From: a virus
Lineage: Duplodnaviria; Heunggongvirae; Uroviricota; Caudoviricetes
IMG/VR virus record: IMGVR_UViG_2548876944_000014
Reading direction: 5' to 3' (one strand)
Length of the DNA: 12,588 nucleotides
Each line of letters opens with the position of its first letter. The stretch's first letter is position 1. Shown one piece after another: positions 3,403 through 9,407 of the stretch. Position numbers and translations under genes: made by a program. The notes under the pieces are model-generated. The model had not been told where the DNA came from, ran no database searches, and saw only the letters and a list, made by a program, of their open reading frames with translations.

Positions 3403-3631
3403 CCTTCACCTGTTCACCTTTTGATATTTTCTCTTTTAATTCATAATGTTAAGGGGTGAACAGTTTCACAAAAACTATTCACCAACTGTTCACCACTGTT
3501 CACCCTTGAAGCTCAATAAACAATCAAAAAGGTGAACAGTGAATAGTTTGGTGAACAGTTCATAAATAACTGTTCACCCTATAATATACTGATATAAAAG
3601 ATATTTATGACAGGGTGAACAGTGGTGAACA
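3403..3631. repeat. Replication origin iteron array: nine perfect TGTTCACC / GGTGAACA octamers plus degenerate copies (P4 ori/crr type I iteron type)
   Basis: Perfect octamers at 3411, 3487, 3497, 3571 (forward) and 3455, 3531, 3550, 3614, 3624 (reverse), with AT-rich spacers (e.g. 3580..3610). Immediately downstream of the P4-alpha-like replicase gene. TGTTCACC is the type I iteron bound by P4 alpha protein, recalled from the literature. Confidence 0.75.
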
Positions 3632-3645
3632 GTTATTCCATAAGT

Positions 3646-5463
3646 TTAATTTTTGCTATCGTCATTAGTGACCGATACACATGATGGCATCCAGTCTTCT
3701 GATTCCTCCGTCAGTGTCACGTTTGAACGCAAACCGTGCTTCGTTTTCCGTTTCATATACTCCCTGCCATATTCCGCCATTGCCCCCGGCATATCTTTAC
3801 CGAAGCGCGTCAGTGTTACAGGTTTACCAAACCCATGTGCCCTCATATAAGCCAGATAGGCATGATAGAGATACCTGCGTGGGCTGAATGGCACAATTTC
3901 AGCATTACCCACTAACAGGCCATCACACATTACCGACGCCATGAGATAGCCGCAGAAGTCCACCAGCGAATCCCCCTCTCGCTTTATCGCCAGTGCTTCT
4001 TCAGATTTCTGCTGCTCATATAACAGGCGTCTGGCTTCGTCCTGGTCAGCAAACCGTGTAAGCAGATGGCGAATCACTACCGCCAGCTCACCTTCTATTT
4101 TTTCCGCCAGCATTGGATCGCGTTCGTTCTCCGGTACAACTTCCGAAAAATTGAATATCACCCGACGACGTGAGATCCCCCCGCTGCGGTCACTGAATGA
4201 CATGGCGTTATTGTTAACCGCCAGCACTACTGCCGGAATACGCGTTGAGTAGGGGGCTTTGTGTTTCGGGTCAATTGCCACCTTGTCACCGCCTGTAATG
4301 GCCTTAATCCCTGCCCCATCACCAGCGTAGCGGGTCATATCCGGCATGATAATCAGCGAAAAGCCAACCACTAACGCGCGTTCCCTTGCATCTTCCAGCG
4401 CCTTCATGCTTGCCGATACTGTGTTGGCCTTACCCGCCAGCATGGTGCAAATCTCCGCCATCACGCTTTTACCACTTCCCCCTGGACCTGTTACCTCAAT
4501 GAATAACTGCCAGTCGTACCGGTTCGCCAGCACCATGAATAAGGCAGCCAGTACGCGATCCGCCTTGCGGTCATTCTCAGCCACCGAACGGCGTAACCAC
4601 TTCCAGAAATTCGGCGCATGTGTTGCCAGCGTTTCCCCCTCTGCTGGTGGGCTGAAAGGTAATTCACTGGCAATTAACAACCAGTCGTTTTTGTTATGCT
4701 CCCGAAAATTACCTGTTCTGGTATCAAATACCCCGTTACTGAATCCAATCAGGTTACGGGCTGTATTCCCCATTACAGGCAAACTTAACTTCATGGTATC
4801 GACCGCCGATTTAATGGCGTTCTGCGAATAGCTGATCTCCGCATCAATGAAAATCTGCGCCATAGCACGCTGTAACTCTTTATCCTGAACCGGCTCCCAT
4901 ACAATGCCGTTGTAATGGTGAACAGTGTCAGAGTCGGCATGAATCGCCAGTTCACCGCCATAATGTGCCAGGAGAACTTCGCCGCGTTGACTTGCTCCCA
5001 TCTGGTTAAGCGCCAGTGATGAAGCGTTATCGTCTTTTACCCGCTCTTTTTTCTTTACAGGCAGTTCAACTACCTTTTTCTTTTCCGCCAGCTCTCCCCG
5101 CTCACGTTCCAGATATTCGCGCCAGTTCTCCCGTTTCTGGCTGTGCATTCCTTCAGGATAATAATCAGCATCCCTGACACCTGCCGCTGCCAGTTTCTGC
5201 CCGATGGTATTAACAAGCCCCGGACGCAATAACCCCGCCTGGTAGAGACGCACGCGATAGCGTCCGTCCGGTACGATTTGCAGGTTGTCCAGTTCGGCAA
5301 GTTGTTGCTCTCCAAGCCAGACAGGTGGCACGTTATCGCCAGCCAGTCGCCCGTCCTGTTCCTGCCACTGCTTCGCATGTGCCCACGCATCACTACCCGC
5401 AAAAATGATGACTTCCGTCATTTTGTCACGCGGCTGGTGTTTTAAATTTGGCGCTTTTTTCAT
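3646..5463 (-). CDS. Replication initiator, P4 alpha-like: D5_N domain plus SF3 helicase (Walker A GPGGSGKS) plus C-terminal putative iteron-binding domain, 605 aa
   Basis: Walker A GPGGSGKS, Walker B-like LIIMPD, and a D5_N-like segment (IGFSNGVFDTRTGNF). ATG at 5463 has GGAGAGAG upstream and forms an ATGA overlap with the stop of the upstream ORF; the ORF-track start at 5478 is GTG. Iterons lie directly downstream. Confidence 0.85.
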   Translation of the reverse strand: MKKAPNLKHQPRDKMTEVIIFAGSDAWAHAKQWQEQDGRLAGDNVPPVWLGEQQLAELDNLQIVPDGRYRVRLYQAGLLRPGLVNTIGQKLAAAGVRDADYYPEGMHSQKRENWREYLERERGELAEKKKVVELPVKKKERVKDDNASSLALNQMGASQRGEVLLAHYGGELAIHADSDTVHHYNGIVWEPVQDKELQRAMAQIFIDAEISYSQNAIKSAVDTMKLSLPVMGNTARNLIGFSNGVFDTRTGNFREHNKNDWLLIASELPFSPPAEGETLATHAPNFWKWLRRSVAENDRKADRVLAALFMVLANRYDWQLFIEVTGPGGSGKSVMAEICTMLAGKANTVSASMKALEDARERALVVGFSLIIMPDMTRYAGDGAGIKAITGGDKVAIDPKHKAPYSTRIPAVVLAVNNNAMSFSDRSGGISRRRVIFNFSEVVPENERDPMLAEKIEGELAVVIRHLLTRFADQDEARRLLYEQQKSEEALAIKREGDSLVDFCGYLMASVMCDGLLVGNAEIVPFSPRRYLYHAYLAYMRAHGFGKPVTLTRFGKDMPGAMAEYGREYMKRKTKHGLRSNVTLTEESEDWMPSCVSVTNDDSKN

Positions 5464-5759
5464 TTCTGCTCTCTCCACGCGGCAATCATGTTTTTCAGTT
5501 CCTGTAGTTTTTTATCCACATCCACACGTGACACATGGTTATTTCTGGAAGTCGGGATTTCCCGCCGGAATCTGCAAATAAAGATCTCCACGTTCAGCGA
5601 ACTAAGAAATGAATATCCATCACGGATAAAATAAACACGGTCAAACATCAGTTCTTTTACCGTTACTCTGTTACCGTTCTTATCCAGATAAATAGCGCCG
5701 GGGATAATTTTGTGGTGTGCATAACCGCTGGCAGTCAAGCCAGATAAATATGTTCTCAT
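5460..5759 (-). CDS. Hypothetical protein (99 aa), translationally coupled to replicase
   Basis: ATG start with GGGGA upstream; stop overlaps the replicase start (ATGA). No recognisable motif. Confidence 0.5.
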   Translation of the reverse strand: MRTYLSGLTASGYAHHKIIPGAIYLDKNGNRVTVKELMFDRVYFIRDGYSFLSSLNVEIFICRFRREIPTSRNNHVSRVDVDKKLQELKNMIAAWREQK

Positions 5760-5765
5760 GATTAT

Positions 5766-6086
5766 TTATCCCCGATTTGAATCAGTATTCGCTTTCTTTA
5801 TGGCATTTAATGCATCTGTGGCATTTTCAATGGTGCACCGTAACGAAATATCAAACCGCCCAAGCATTGCCAGTAACAAACCGATATTACCCATATCAAT
5901 GCGCATGGCCTTTTCGTCATAGTCCTCATTTTCTGACGCATGCCACATCAGGCTACCAATTGACGCAATACCCATTGATATATTGTCAGTAGCCCCATCC
6001 GCAGCGGAATAAACCTTTTTAGCAATATCATGCTCACAGTTAAAATGCGGATTAATCAGGTACTGGTAATTTGACATATCAGGCAT
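5766..6086 (-). CDS. Hypothetical acidic protein (106 aa)
   Basis: ATG at 6086..6084 overlaps the stop of the upstream 67-codon ORF by 8 nt. Same strand and operon as the replicase. No recognisable motif. Confidence 0.5.
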   Translation of the reverse strand: MPDMSNYQYLINPHFNCEHDIAKKVYSAADGATDNISMGIASIGSLMWHASENEDYDEKAMRIDMGNIGLLLAMLGRFDISLRCTIENATDALNAIKKANTDSNRG

Positions 6087-6282
6087 GGCACACCCCCTGA
6101 CGAATACGGGCGGCGAATACCATCACGCAGCCAGCCGGAGATTGCTGGCGTGCTTCCTGTTCGCTGGTGGCCTCAATGGTAATCACGCGCGGTTGTGCCG
6201 TGCTCAGGGCGATAAAACGCCAGGCGAATTTATTCAGGTCGTGCGAGTCCCGCCCTTGCGGGTGTGTGGTATGATTTCTCAT
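6079..6282 (-). CDS. Hypothetical small protein (67 aa), first gene of the replication operon
   Basis: This is the C-terminal part of the implausible 306-aa ORF-track entry. The internal ATG at 6282..6280 is preceded by GAGGT at about 7 nt (MRNH...). Overlaps the next gene. Sits just downstream of the palindromic operator region. Confidence 0.4.
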   Translation of the reverse strand: MRNHTTHPQGRDSHDLNKFAWRFIALSTAQPRVITIEATSEQEARQQSPAGCVMVFAARIRQGVCHA

Positions 6283-6378
6283 AGCTACCTCGATACGCTT
6301 TCTATCGTTGGTGGTTAGAAGCCCGGTTAGTGTTAGCGCACTGCCGGGTTTCGTCGTTTCTGCACCTTGCATCAACAA

Positions 6379-6431
6379 GGTGTTAAACACCAATTTAAGC
6401 CTAGGTGTTAAACACGTCAAGTGTTGAACAC
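6379..6431. promoter_or_regulatory. Three palindromic operator-like sites: GGTGTTAAACACC, GGTGTTAAACACG, GTGTTGAACAC
   Basis: Inverted repeats GTGTT/AACAC at 6379..6391, 6404..6416 and 6421..6431, in the roughly 200-bp divergent region between the minus-strand replication operon (start 6282) and the plus-strand RHH gene (start 6482). Confidence 0.5.
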
Positions 6432-6481
6432 TTATTTTTTTTCCTGCATACTGCATTTGTTTTTTGTAAGGGGTACACAAC

Positions 6482-6661
6482 ATGGCGACAAAAGCAGTAA
6501 ACGCAAAATCACAAACAGTTGCGGCAAGGGTTCCGCATGAAGTTATGAACAATGTTGAGGCGGTAAAAATGCCTGGTGAAAGTACAGGGCAGTTTGTAAC
6601 AGCAGCATTAAAGCGAGAAGTTGAATACCGCCAGCGTCGCAAGGCCAAAGAGCAGGAGTAA
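6482..6661 (+). CDS. Ribbon-helix-helix (Arc/CopG-like) DNA-binding protein, 59 aa; candidate repressor
   Basis: Not in the ORF track (below its 60-aa cut-off). ATG preceded by TAAGGGG. Sequence MATKAVNAKSQTVAARVPHEVMNNVEAVKMPGESTGQFVTAALKREVEYRQRRKAKEQE shows beta-strand (VAARVPHEV), helix, Gly turn, helix as in RHH folds. Followed by a second small ORF and a plus-strand terminator. Confidence 0.5.
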   Translation: MATKAVNAKSQTVAARVPHEVMNNVEAVKMPGESTGQFVTAALKREVEYRQRRKAKEQE

Positions 6662-6718
6662 CCATCACCAGCGCCGTGGTGCGGTGAACTATGGCGCACA
6701 GGGTTACAGGTATCTACG

Positions 6719-6898
6719 ATGACTGACAAATCATTAAAGAAATTATCCTCATCCAAGAAAAAACAACGCAAAAATGCGGTAAACGAACATGAACCGGAGA
6801 GATTCGCACCATGTGCGTTTATCCTTGAGAAGTACCTTAAAGAGTATTCTAGGAAAATACGCTCATTGCAGGCATGGCAGCGAATCGAGCCAGACTGA
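6719..6898 (+). CDS. Hypothetical basic small protein (59 aa)
   Basis: Open frame between the RHH gene and the plus-strand terminator. Weak ribosome-binding site; no motif. Supported mainly by the operon context. Confidence 0.25.
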   Translation: MTDKSLKKLSSSKKKQRKNAVNEHEPERFAPCAFILEKYLKEYSRKIRSLQAWQRIEPD

Positions 6899-6962
6899 TA
6901 ACATTGCCCACCAGCCAACAACCTGGTATTCTGGATATGCTCAAGTTTAGTGTTATGCCACT

Positions 6963-6990
6963 GGCGACCGCCCTTGGTCGCCTTTGTTTT
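6963..6990 (+). terminator. Rho-independent terminator for the plus-strand RHH unit
   Basis: GGCGACC-GCCCTT-GGTCGCC (perfect 7-bp stem) followed by TTTGTTTT on the plus strand. Lies between the convergent small-ORF unit and the alpA stop. Confidence 0.6.
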
Positions 6991-7007
6991 ATGTGTCATA
7001 GCCCCCC

Positions 7008-7232
7008 CTACGCTGCCTTACCTGAATTAACGCGGTCACGGCTTTGCACCCAGTCCATAACTTCGGAAAGCAACCAGCCTACAGAACGCCCCCCAAGATT
7101 ACGGCGAGACGGAAAGCCCCCTTTCTTCTCCAGTTCGTAGCGTGTAGTACGGCTGACGCCTGTTAACTTACGACATTCATCCTCACGAATTACGCGATCT
7201 GTTAGTGATTGAAATTGTGTATTTTGATTCAT
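7008..7232 (-). CDS. alpA: AlpA-family (phage Xis/AlpA-type HTH) transcriptional regulator, 74 aa
   Basis: Small HTH protein with the AlpA-like C-terminus (RSVGWLLSEVMDWVQSR). ATG with GAGGGTG Shine-Dalgarno and its own AT-rich upstream region. Typical position next to int in P4-like and PICI elements. Confidence 0.8.
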   Translation of the reverse strand: MNQNTQFQSLTDRVIREDECRKLTGVSRTTRYELEKKGGFPSRRNLGGRSVGWLLSEVMDWVQSRDRVNSGKAA

Positions 7233-7335: not shown

Positions 7336-8190
7336 TTAATTTTCATTAGATAACATTTTTCTTATTTTTTCTAAAGAATCGCTGCGCATTATTTTTTCTA
7401 AGAAGGGTTTTACAGTCTGAGCAATAGCAAAGGTGTCCTTTTCACCATCAGGATACAAAGATACGGCAAGCACCCCTAATGAAATTTTTCTATCTGTAGA
7501 CAACTCCCAAGATAATAAGTCAATTAATGGGATTATCTTATAATCAATAATTTTACGTCGTATGCTCTCCCAACTTCCTGCAATTGGTTTGTCTGGCTCA
7601 ACAATTGAAAGTTCACTACGCCATTTTGGTAATAGTTTTGTAAACGCTTCAATCAACTCATCATCTCTGTTATGTAGTAAGTCAACAGAAACAAGCATAT
7701 TATCTAATGTATCAGAAAGGAGATTCACTGGTTCACGCATCACAGCCCAAAACATCCCATTATCTTCTGATATTAAACTTCCAACCATCTCATTATCTAT
7801 GATGATTGGTTTATCCTTCCAATATCCTCTTTCCGCAGTCAGTTTATTAATCATTGATATATCAAACCTTGTTACAGGTTTAATTCCATCATCATAACTT
7901 AGCTCAATTAACTTCGGCTGCACTTTATGGTCATATTCTTTTTGTTTATCACAAAACCAATCGTCTTCTTTCAGCTCTCCAAATGGATCCCCGTAATTAT
8001 TATGCAACGGGTATTCAGCACCAAACATAAAACCATATTCAGGCATCTCAGAATGTTTCATTGTTAAATCATCTTGTCGCCAATATAATTGGCGAAATAG
8101 ATCTTTATCCGACAAGTTTTCTAGGCAATCATATTTGCCTAAATCAAATGACTTTGGTAAATCTTTTTTACTATTTACTTTTTTCGTCAT
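7336..8190 (-). CDS. Hypothetical protein (284 aa), AT-rich cargo gene between int and alpA; function unknown, candidate accessory/defence gene
   Basis: Long clean ORF with visibly lower GC than its neighbours. ATG overlaps the int stop (ATGA), so it is probably co-transcribed with int. Acidic, no transmembrane segment, no Walker or nuclease motif recognised. Confidence 0.6.
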   Translation of the reverse strand: MTKKVNSKKDLPKSFDLGKYDCLENLSDKDLFRQLYWRQDDLTMKHSEMPEYGFMFGAEYPLHNNYGDPFGELKEDDWFCDKQKEYDHKVQPKLIELSYDDGIKPVTRFDISMINKLTAERGYWKDKPIIIDNEMVGSLISEDNGMFWAVMREPVNLLSDTLDNMLVSVDLLHNRDDELIEAFTKLLPKWRSELSIVEPDKPIAGSWESIRRKIIDYKIIPLIDLLSWELSTDRKISLGVLAVSLYPDGEKDTFAIAQTVKPFLEKIMRSDSLEKIRKMLSNEN

Positions 8191-9407
8191 TGTATCCCTC
8201 TCAATATCACAATATTTTCATTATATCCTGCAATCATATCAAGACGCTCAACCCATAGATTCAGTGCGTCCCGTTTCGCCTGCAAATAGCGTGAATGGTT
8301 ATAGGTTTTTTGCTGACCTGGCATCTGATGCGCTGTGATGTGCTCCACGATATGCGGATCGACACCTAAATCATTCAGCATAGTTGTAAACGTGTGTCGG
8401 AAATCATGCAGCGTCCAGTGTTCCTGCTTAAGCCGCTTATGCGCATTTCGTCCATATTGCGCCACCGTGGTATCTTTTTTCAGTTCGCCGAGTAATAACC
8501 CAGTGTGTGCGTTTTGCTCCACCAGCTTCTGAATGAACGGCAAAATGCCATCAGGAATAGGTCGGAATATTGTTACCTTCGTTTTGCTGTGCTCTTTTGG
8601 CACTGTCCACAACATTTCTTTCAGATCCCATTCTTTGATCTCTGAAAGTCTGATCTCTGCCGTTCTACACCCGAACACAATTAACAAGCGCATTAACGCA
8701 CTGTAATAGGGAGCGAACACATCACCATCAATAGCGCGTAGAATTTCTTTTAGTTCGCTGTTGCTGTGCACTCTCTCGCGGATTTCTGCTCTCTTACCCA
8801 CATCAGTAACGATCAAATCGTCCAGGGCGTTGCTAAACGCGTAGCGCCGCCTGCGGCAAAACTTTAGCGCCTGTTTGCATGTCTGCATGACATGGCCCGC
8901 TGCTACTGGTGCTTTTTTTCGTACGCGGTCAAAACATGCGATCCACTGCCTTGTATCACACTTATCAAGGGGAATTGCCCCGATATGGCAAATGATGTGC
9001 TTATCCATACGCTGCACCAGCTTTATGTAATCTTTGCGGTTATCCTTCGCGTATTCCTCCAGCCAGTAGTTAATCGCTTCCTTCACCGTAACGGGTTTTA
9101 GTGCTTCTTGTACTGTGGCGCACAACTCATACCGAGGGTTTTTACCCTCAGCCAGCCATGCCCGGCACTGTGTTCGCTTTTCCCTTGCAGATTTCAGCGA
9201 CAATTCCGGGTAAGCCCCCAGCTTTAACCGCTCTGCGGCAACCTCACGGCCTCCCGTTCGGTACCGGAAATACCAGGTTAATTTGCCTCCCTTTGAGTGT
9301 TTAATCTCCAGCCCGCCCCCGTCGGAGTAAAAACGCTCTTTTTCTGCCTGGACAGCCACCAATTTTTTTAACGTTGAATCGCTCAGTTTGTTTAGTGCTT
9401 TTCCCAC
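8187..9407 (-). CDS. int: Tyrosine recombinase / integrase, P4 family (N-terminal DUF4102 arm-binding domain), 406 aa
   Basis: N-terminal DGGGL...WYFRYR...LGAYPELSLKSAREKR signature of P4-type integrases. Catalytic HDFRHTF box and C-terminal Tyr region. GTG start with AGAGGA Shine-Dalgarno. Lies at the element edge facing the chromosome. Confidence 0.9.
   Translation of the reverse strand: MGKALNKLSDSTLKKLVAVQAEKERFYSDGGGLEIKHSKGGKLTWYFRYRTGGREVAAERLKLGAYPELSLKSAREKRTQCRAWLAEGKNPRYELCATVQEALKPVTVKEAINYWLEEYAKDNRKDYIKLVQRMDKHIICHIGAIPLDKCDTRQWIACFDRVRKKAPVAAGHVMQTCKQALKFCRRRRYAFSNALDDLIVTDVGKRAEIRERVHSNSELKEILRAIDGDVFAPYYSALMRLLIVFGCRTAEIRLSEIKEWDLKEMLWTVPKEHSKTKVTIFRPIPDGILPFIQKLVEQNAHTGLLLGELKKDTTVAQYGRNAHKRLKQEHWTLHDFRHTFTTMLNDLGVDPHIVEHITAHQMPGQQKTYNHSRYLQAKRDALNLWVERLDMIAGYNENIVILRGIQ

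Follow-up and report, generated by a model that had tools for sequence, protein, structure and literature searches.

A 12,588-nucleotide stretch of viral DNA (IMG/VR record IMGVR_UViG_2548876944_000014; "the window" denotes this whole 12.6 kb) carries on its minus strand three small open reading frames (ORFs) of 67, 106, and 99 codons ahead of a primase gene, at positions 6079–6282 (gene 1), 5766–6086 (gene 2), and 5460–5759 (gene 3). The window is 100% identical to the chromosome of Escherichia coli CUVET16-819, in whose RefSeq record all three ORFs are annotated at identical coordinates. The initial annotation, made from the sequence, placed them as translationally linked genes at the head of a replication operon, a placement upheld by the recurrence of the gene order in 176 related loci. 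It also described all three as genes of unknown function with no motif that could be named. Profile searches show this to be wrong for gene 1, which matches the NCBIfam family NF033153, and for gene 3, which matches the Pfam family PF13973, whereas gene 2 has no assignment and is the only one that lacks a known family. As developed below, the three ORFs open the replication operon carried by an AlpA-type phage satellite, and gene 1 probably acts as its gate by means of an antisense RNA.

Gene 1 (minus strand, 6079–6282) has its own Shine-Dalgarno (SD) sequence and ATG and encodes a protein of 67 residues, which RefSeq names an Icd-like protein. Residues 19–62 match NF033153, "host cell division inhibitor Icd-like," with 67 bits (cutoff 25), and BLASTP aligns the protein to Icd of phage P1 with 35% identity over 43 residues (pairwise E = 1e-5). 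The latter match is weak but collinear and covers the conserved core, the shared residues being WRF...EAR...F.AR. Judged by its sequence, gene 1 is an Icd-like protein, of the family of P1 Icd and the "cI ORF" of phage P4; a function as a cell-division inhibitor would be carried over from P1 Icd. The gene also sits as a leader, as expected of this family, with a stop that overlaps the next start by 8 nt, compared to 4 nt in P1. A tblastn search of 50,697 phage records returned a single match for gene 1 and none for genes 2 and 3, and PDB sequence profiles gave no match for gene 1 or gene 3 and chance-level matches only for gene 2. No PADLOC defense-system model matched the three proteins, the primase, or the products of three neighboring frames discussed below (DUF6387, YlcI, and a long ORF).

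The junctions between these genes are tight, although the mutual overlaps of 4 to 8 nt reported initially hold for only two of the three. Genes 1 and 2 overlap by 8 nt (ATGCCTGA, 6079–6086) and a 4-nt overlap (ATGA, 5460–5463, with the primase starting at ATG 5463 as in RefSeq) joins gene 3 to the primase, but a 6-nt gap separates the stop of gene 2 (TAA, 5768–5766) from the ATG of gene 3 at 5759; across 133 related loci, junctions of this type most often have a gap of +2 to +6. A purine-rich SD can be read before each start, as had been stated: GAGGT for gene 1 (6291–6287), GGGGG for gene 2 (6097–6093), GGGGA for gene 3 (5773–5769), and GGAGAGAG for the primase (5476–5469), all on the minus strand. 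When compared to relatives, the genes display ratios of nonsynonymous to synonymous variation (pN/pS) of 0.58, 0.37, and 0.47, respectively, and in all three the variable sites are most frequent at codon position 3, so that the frames look coding, with moderate constraint. The run of five G on the minus strand at 6093–6097 immediately precedes the junction between the first two genes, and database variants that are one G shorter merge the two genes into a single protein (P0001, 171 residues, 36 member sequences; P0140), which could reflect natural slippage or sequencing error.

The comparison set of 176 loci comprises 12 from other enterobacterial genera, 160 from viral contigs, and four from E. 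coli genomes. Throughout this set the order is kept as an Icd-like gene, zero to five small ORFs that vary by locus, a DUF4222 gene (the Pfam family of gene 3), and a replicase. In every one of the 174 loci scored, the stop of the Icd-like gene overlaps the next start; the overlap measures 8 nt in 129 of them, 11 nt in a further 33, and 4 nt in seven. DUF4222 occurs in 133 of the 176 loci, almost without exception directly ahead of the replicase, to which it is joined by an ATGA junction that is maintained with three replicase types (primase, RepA helicase, and DUF927). Of 5,426 complete E. coli genomes, 1,488 contain some or all of the 1.1-kb region that surrounds the three genes. In themselves, the three are ordinary genes, already annotated, of a satellite module that is widespread.

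Opposite the start of gene 1, the plus strand at 6283–6362 is predicted to encode a cis-antisense RNA resembling SymR, with two hairpins of which the second is terminator-like, complementary to the leader of gene 1 and its SD. An Rfam scan of the window matched SymR (RF01809) over its full length at 6283–6355 on the plus strand with 32.8 bits, below the gathering threshold of 61; sub-threshold matches at the same place and in the same orientation (28–45 bits) were found in seven further loci, and hence in 8 of the first 16 loci. In the window the antisense strand folds with a minimum free energy of −35.1 kcal/mol (z = −5.2), compared to −20.5 kcal/mol (z = −1.9) for the sense strand. The same holds for 92 unique leaders, where the antisense strand averages −36.2 kcal/mol against −23.6 kcal/mol for the mRNA strand and is the more stable of the two in 91. 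The consensus consists of two hairpins with compensatory changes in 17 of 22 pairs, and many of its conserved G-U pairs on the plus strand would be A-C mismatches in the mRNA. In an alignment of 43 sequences, 96% of cells are paired, compared to 33–50% when the partners are slid, with 15 compensatory pairs, and none of 500 shuffles matched the covariation of this alignment. A U-rich tail follows the second hairpin on the antisense strand only. Within codons 3–6 of gene 1 lies a predicted extended −10 box for this RNA, TGgTATGAT (plus strand, 6267–6275); a TAnnnT hexamer (TATGAT, TAGACT, or TATGCT) is found exactly 7 nt before the inferred 5′ end of the RNA in 92 of 94 unique loci, and in 47 of the 94 it is directly preceded by TGG. 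From this comparative sequence evidence we conclude that these Icd-like genes have a conserved partner in a SymR-like cis-antisense RNA. No Rfam family reaches its threshold at the gene 1 leader, where the RNA is uncatalogued, and we found no description of an antisense RNA at the Icd-like genes of satellites in a literature coverage that was incomplete and so is not proof of novelty.

To relate this RNA to SymR, we used a covariance model that was built without SymR (model R1). R1 scores 77.7 bits in the window and 51 bits in the Sakai prophage Sp7, opposite the Icd-like gene ECs_1577. With filters off, its best match in 6 kb of E. coli K-12 is SymR itself, beginning exactly where the annotated RNA begins (25.9 bits, rough E = 3e-5); with default filters R1 missed the K-12 SymR. 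Like SymR, the RNA in the window lies opposite the SD and start of its target and folds into two hairpins, but the target is Icd-like rather than SymE. Common ancestry of the two RNAs is suggestive and not proven, because the scores lie below the Rfam gathering threshold and detection by R1 required the filters to be off. In K-12, the symE leader and first codons (M-T-D-T-H-S; L018, 3836–3912) are similar to the corresponding parts of a group of Icd-like genes (M-A-D-x-Q-S-T), which suggests that the 5′ control region of symE may have been acquired from such an element. A C4-type RNA (RF01695) was rejected for the window, with no match at an E-value of 1 or below. A related E. coli locus (L004), by comparison, carries IsrK (80 bits) and C4 (75 bits) matches above the Rfam threshold and a c4 target motif upstream of its Icd-like domain, which is the arrangement of P1, with a C4-type RNA before the Icd-like domain. 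The RNA that accompanies an Icd-like leader gene is thus of either the C4 or the SymR type. An "ash family protein" pseudogene annotated at 4737–5165 of L004 overlies the IsrK and C4 matches.

Upstream of gene 1, a promoter scan predicts a sigma-70 promoter for its operon (TTGACG-17-TAAATT; minus strand, 6392–6420), giving a gene 1 leader of about 100 nt, and loci of other genera have a TTGAC or TTGAA hexamer in the corresponding position. Three exact copies of the palindrome GTGTTRAACAC, which are putative operators, occur at 6380–6390, 6405–6415, and 6421–6431 (three matches, where 0.00 would be expected). They overlap both the leftward gene 1 promoter and a weak rightward promoter (TTGAAC-17-CATACT, 6424–6452) before a divergent gene, which gives this region the look of a divergent operator switch. 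The sequence of the repeat varies between related loci, which suggests different immunity types. The divergent gene (plus strand, 6482–6661) encodes a YlcI/YnfO-family protein of 59 residues (NF041551, 59.7 bits, cutoff 30), is annotated in RefSeq, has homologues in 58 loci, and lies antisense within a long frame that ends with gene 1. As a guess, the YlcI-like protein may be what binds the palindromes. Farther along the plus strand, a 59-codon ORF at 6719–6898, absent from RefSeq, matches phrog_21027 (E = 5e-30); it shares the reading frame of the YlcI gene and, like that gene, lies antisense inside the long ORF. A terminator-like hairpin followed by a T-run at 6963–6982 (plus strand) ends the rightward YlcI unit. 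The reverse complement of this hairpin encodes the conserved start of the long ORF, "KTKAxxGRQ," and that apparent protein conservation is therefore probably at the DNA or RNA level.

The arrangement resembles several known control regions. According to the P1 record, c4 is located immediately ahead of icd, and the icd ribosome-binding site (RBS) is covered by the c4 target sites a2 and b2, annotated with "repression of icd ant translation." The record also describes Icd as "apparently required for expression of ant" and shows a 4-nt overlap of icd with ant1. The P1 immI region and the window share an Icd-family leader whose RBS is targeted by a small RNA of ∼77 nt, whose stop overlaps the next start, and whose translation is needed for the next gene (in the window, by proposal). 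They differ in the nature of the RNA, c4 being cut out of the same transcript and working by means of short complementary sites, and in that the downstream cargo is an antirepressor in P1 and a set of replication genes in the window. SymE/SymR supplies the other half of the resemblance: an antisense RNA of ∼77 nt with two hairpins, which starts a few nt from the start codon of its target and covers the SD. SymR and the window RNA match each other by covariance model in both directions, but the SymE/SymR target is AbrB-like and stands alone, whereas the window target is Icd-like and heads a coupled operon; no evidence of SOS control was found at the window locus, in contrast to SymE/SymR.

In phage P4 (L179, NC_001609), the ORF at 8168–8584 annotated as "cI gene product/transcriptional repressor" contains an Icd-like domain at residues 85–132 (73.9 bits) and overlaps epsilon, the helper derepressor, by 8 nt; small ORFs and then the alpha primase follow. 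The left operon of P4 (CI RNA, "cI ORF," epsilon, orf151, orf106, alpha) and the window operon both consist of a regulatory RNA, an Icd-like domain, an 8-nt overlap, small ORFs, and a primase, and in both the replication genes are kept off through an RNA, as is proposed here for the window. P4 differs in its C4-type CI RNA and in having DUF5375 rather than DUF4222 before alpha, and the window differs in its AlpA-type organization and its capsid gene; sid, delta, and psu were not seen in the window or its flanks. Some protein annotations in regions such as those of the P4 cI ORF and the ash-family protein of L004 may be read-throughs of RNA genes. A further parallel is Sakai Sp7/EDL933 OI-51, where the Icd-like ECs_1577 has an antisense RNA match, an 8-nt overlap, small ORFs, and a DUF4222 protein (RgdR) coupled by ATGA to the primase. 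Four small ORFs separate Icd and DUF4222 in Sp7, compared to one in the window.

Gene 3 (minus strand, 5460–5759) matches DUF4222 (PF13973) with 60.7 bits (cutoff 27) and is 31% identical to RgdR (ECs_1581) across all 99 residues (E = 3e-13). ECs_1581 (4305–4604) corresponds to gene 3 in size and position, being 99 residues long and overlapping its primase (4601–6733). RgdR (ECs1581), encoded on the O157 island OI-51 (Sakai/EDL933), is the one DUF4222 member that has been studied; it activates LEE1 and the type III secretion system (T3SS), represses motility, and binds DNA non-specifically, and its RGD tripeptide at residues 20–22 is important for T3SS activation (PMC3378721). This motif, from which RgdR takes its name, is absent from gene 3, whose aligned residues 20–22 are P-G-A. 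The predicted structure of gene 3 is of modest confidence, with a predicted local distance difference test (pLDDT) score of 64.6, and displays a small SH3-like beta-barrel with a C-terminal helix. Foldseek with the DUF4222 model recurrently returned small SH3/Sm/Tudor-like barrels at E-values of 0.1 or higher, which is a hint only. By its position and this fold hint, a likely role for gene 3 is that of a small nucleic-acid-binding accessory to the replicase, a D5/P4-family primase-helicase (minus strand, 3646–5463; Pfam D5_N, DUF5906, and Pox_D5; TIGR01613) whose likely start is the RefSeq ATG at 5463.

Gene 2 (minus strand, 5766–6086), the 106-residue orphan, has no match in Pfam, NCBIfam, or PADLOC; its sole match is phrog_15327, a family with no assigned function, and it has 18 relatives among 1.84 billion representative proteins. 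Its AlphaFold2 model (pLDDT 81.5) predicts, with fair confidence, a two-helix hairpin (helices 19–51 and 58–104), and a Foldseek search with this model against the PDB and viral structures returned just generic helical hairpins at E-values of 0.67 or higher. Members of the gene 2 family fill the slot between Icd and DUF4222 in 61 related loci. This slot is the one occupied in P4 by epsilon, but gene 2 is unrelated to epsilon (hhalign probability 0.1%) and no similarity to P4 ORF106 was found. The initial annotation had listed excision, derepression, and helper interference as functions typical of this position. A helper interaction has its precedent in P4 epsilon, but there is no sign of excision functions here, the integrase and AlpA lying upstream. 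By analogy with epsilon, gene 2 is most likely a helper- or host-interaction factor in a fast-swapping slot.

We favor, with moderate confidence, a reading in which the three ORFs are the front of an AlpA-type satellite replication operon and gene 1 is its gate. The anatomy can be read from the sequence as a promoter, three palindromes, a leader, an antisense RNA over the SD, and gene junctions that are fused as far as the primase. While the island is quiescent, this RNA would pair with the leader and block translation of gene 1. With no ribosomes on gene 1, the coupled 106-residue gene, DUF4222, and the primase would stay untranslated and replication would be off, while the ribosome-free transcript would be exposed to Rho-dependent polarity. 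Upon induction, gene 1 would be translated by way of AlpA-driven read-through from upstream, derepression at the palindromes, or both; ribosomes would then be passed on to the replication genes, and the Icd-like product would transiently block host cell division. The mechanism is carried over by analogy from P1, SymR, and P4. SymR overlaps the RBS and start codon of symE and blocks symE translation rather than triggering decay (PMC4147584), and in P4 premature termination that depends on an RNA keeps the replication genes silent (PMC4825925). For EcCICFT073, a satellite of E. coli, AlpA is known to activate the gene that follows alpA, and the founding paper on AlpA satellites found no repressor (PMC6092414).

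Several points weigh against the gate. At this locus it rests on sequence and analogy: the promoter and ends of the antisense RNA are predictions, Rho-dependent polarity is transferred from P1 and P4, and cell-division inhibition is known solely for P1 Icd, with which gene 1 shares 35% identity over 43 residues. The SymR match reaches 32.8 bits against an Rfam threshold of 61, and R1 detects SymR (25.9 bits) only with the filters off. Some initiation independent of gene 1 is possible, because every gene behind it is preceded by an SD. The roles proposed for genes 2 and 3 are drawn from position and weak fold hints, the DUF4222 model having a pLDDT of 64.6 and Foldseek E-values of at least 0.1.

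The strongest rival is that gene 1 and its antisense RNA form a free-standing type I toxin-antitoxin system, acting in addiction or abortive infection to stabilize the island or kill infected cells, and that the coupling is mere operon compaction. SymE/SymR indeed has this layout, in which a cis-antisense RNA covers the RBS of a small protein that inhibits growth, and a six-gene prophage locus of ECOR61 that includes an Icd-like protein and a primase confers programmed cell death triggered by a phage gene, with the Icd-like protein as the likely effector; that effect, however, required all six linked genes (bioRxiv 10.1101/2023.04.06.535777). The overlap of the Icd stop with the next start in every locus scored, and likewise in P1 and P4, goes beyond what compaction needs. 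We consider this rival unlikely as a replacement for the gate. The ECOR61 finding keeps it live, and a role in addiction or abortive infection could coexist with the gate, the two not being mutually exclusive.

It is improbable that the three are unrelated accessory genes at the front of the operon with no role in replication control, gene 3 being a regulator of host virulence like RgdR. The activities of RgdR on LEE1, the T3SS, and motility would fit such a role, as would the zero to five unrelated ORFs in the slot between Icd and DUF4222 and the lack of a PADLOC match for any of the three proteins. Yet DUF4222 is found in 133 of 176 loci, many of them in hosts without LEE, as follows from the account of uropathogenic and commensal E. 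coli strains in the RgdR study (PMC3378721). The ATGA junction is maintained with three different replicase types, the DNA binding of RgdR is non-specific (PMC3378721), and gene 3 has PGA in place of the RGD motif. Equally improbable is that the hairpins act within the mRNA, as an SD-hiding or attenuating leader with no separate antisense RNA: both can form in the sense strand, the 3′ one including the SD, but that strand is far less stable in the window and in 91 of 92 leaders, the plus-strand G-U pairs become A-C mismatches in it, the U-rich tail is lost, and the TAnnnT box is fixed at 7 nt from the RNA 5′ end in 92 of 94 loci.

As the initial annotation had noted, the 67-codon gene is missing as a separate entry from the list of ORFs, where it is found only within a frame of 306 codons (minus strand, 6079–6999) that begins with an ATG 8 nt after the alpA stop and runs through to the stop of gene 1. 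This frame had been dismissed as spurious, a judgment that the conserved absence of stops contradicts. In 77 of 130 unique regions, the 200 codons upstream of the gene 1 ATG are stop-free in the frame of gene 1, compared to 3, 0, 0, 0, and 0 regions for the other five frames. Among 40 regions that have fewer than 10% of 12-mers in common, 17 are stop-free in this frame, and the frame stays open in Rahnella, Hafnia, Pantoea, Serratia, Leclercia, and Kosakonia despite middle parts that are non-homologous. Loci of the window type conserve an SD and ATG 8–10 nt after the alpA stop. The strands are indistinguishable by pN/pS in the YlcI overlap (0.44 versus 0.55) as their third codon positions coincide, and for this reason stop avoidance was used as the test. 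In 40 unique YlcI homologues we counted 0 stops in the antisense frame, compared to 31.6±5.2 (minimum 18) when synonymous codons were resampled; the codon preceding a His or Gln codon ends in T in 0 of 183 cases. These homologues are related, and the stop counts are not independent events, but their synonymous divergence is high (pS about 0.66). Codon-position variation was set aside for the extension of the long ORF, for which there are just five unique close relatives. Because the frame is conserved as stop-free and stops are avoided at synonymous sites of YlcI, the 306-codon frame is, on this sequence evidence, under selection to stay open.

The role of the long frame may be to encode a long isoform of Icd, or translation itself may matter by carrying ribosomes from alpA past an RNA-blocked RBS. 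In Sp7, a 247-codon upstream ORF stops 26 nt before the Icd start, with no fusion, whereas the window frame runs into the Icd gene; the Sp7 arrangement fits the ribosome-carrying idea slightly better than a long isoform. We tentatively entertain, as a possibility less probable than the gate itself, that the 306-codon frame is truly translated, antisense through the YlcI/YnfO gene, with ribosomes on AlpA-driven transcripts starting 8 nt after alpA and reading in frame across promoter, operators, and leader to reach the Icd domain past the blocked RBS. If so, the operon would need two keys, transcription from upstream and translation that overrides the RNA lock; there would be two nested Icd isoforms, of 306 and 67 residues; and the avoidance of stops at synonymous sites of the opposite-strand gene would offer a clear-cut example from bacteria of an antiparallel overlapping frame maintained by selection. 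A long stop-free frame over a real antisense gene is evidence of a kind seldom documented this clearly in bacteria.

The genes belong to an island of roughly 10 kb inserted between thiM and rcnR in E. coli, whose order on the minus strand is integrase, DUF6387, AlpA, YlcI (divergent), Icd, the 106-residue gene, DUF4222, primase, a capsid gene, and DUF1441. Upstream of the three genes lie the tyrosine integrase (8187–9407), DUF6387 (7336–8190), and the AlpA-family regulator (7008–7232; PF05930, 58.8 bits), and downstream lies a fusion of a ClpP protease and a major capsid protein (745–2658), all on the minus strand. By its gene content, the window is an AlpA-type phage satellite resembling a phage-inducible chromosomal island (PICI): its organization is that of the AlpA-type PICIs of Gram-negative bacteria, with integrase, alpA, and primase/replicase co-oriented, a size of about 10–15 kb, and a chromosomal att site, following the published definition (PMC6092414). 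As a member of this class, the island would be induced and packaged by a helper phage. The capsid fusion and DUF1441 are present (window, 3–2658; L001, 6320–9259), but no portal or terminase precedes the thiM boundary, so the island is not a full capsid-forming one like Sakai Sp7. Directly downstream of the primase stop (3646), an AT-rich stretch at 3409–3638 contains at least 10 copies of GGTGAACAGT in both orientations and is probably the replication origin of the island; an Rfam match to MIR1508 at this position is a false positive caused by the repeats. The Rfam int-alpA RNA motif (RF02996) is above threshold in the interval between integrase and alpA in four loci (L009, 1153–1218; L010, 863–928; L011, 899–967; and L014, 5869–5935) and was not found in the window.

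AlpA-type satellites are common. A conserved antisense RNA lying over the leading gene of their replication operon, together with operators and a divergent small gene, is a concrete candidate for the circuit that keeps their replication silent, and possibly the missing control step. Labels such as "transcriptional repressor" for the P4 cI ORF and "ash family protein" in L004 overlie regulatory-RNA regions and may need revisiting. The immunity of P1 (c4-icd-ant), the immunity of P4, and SymE/SymR would be joined in one pattern, in which a small RNA blocks a leader ORF that licenses what follows.

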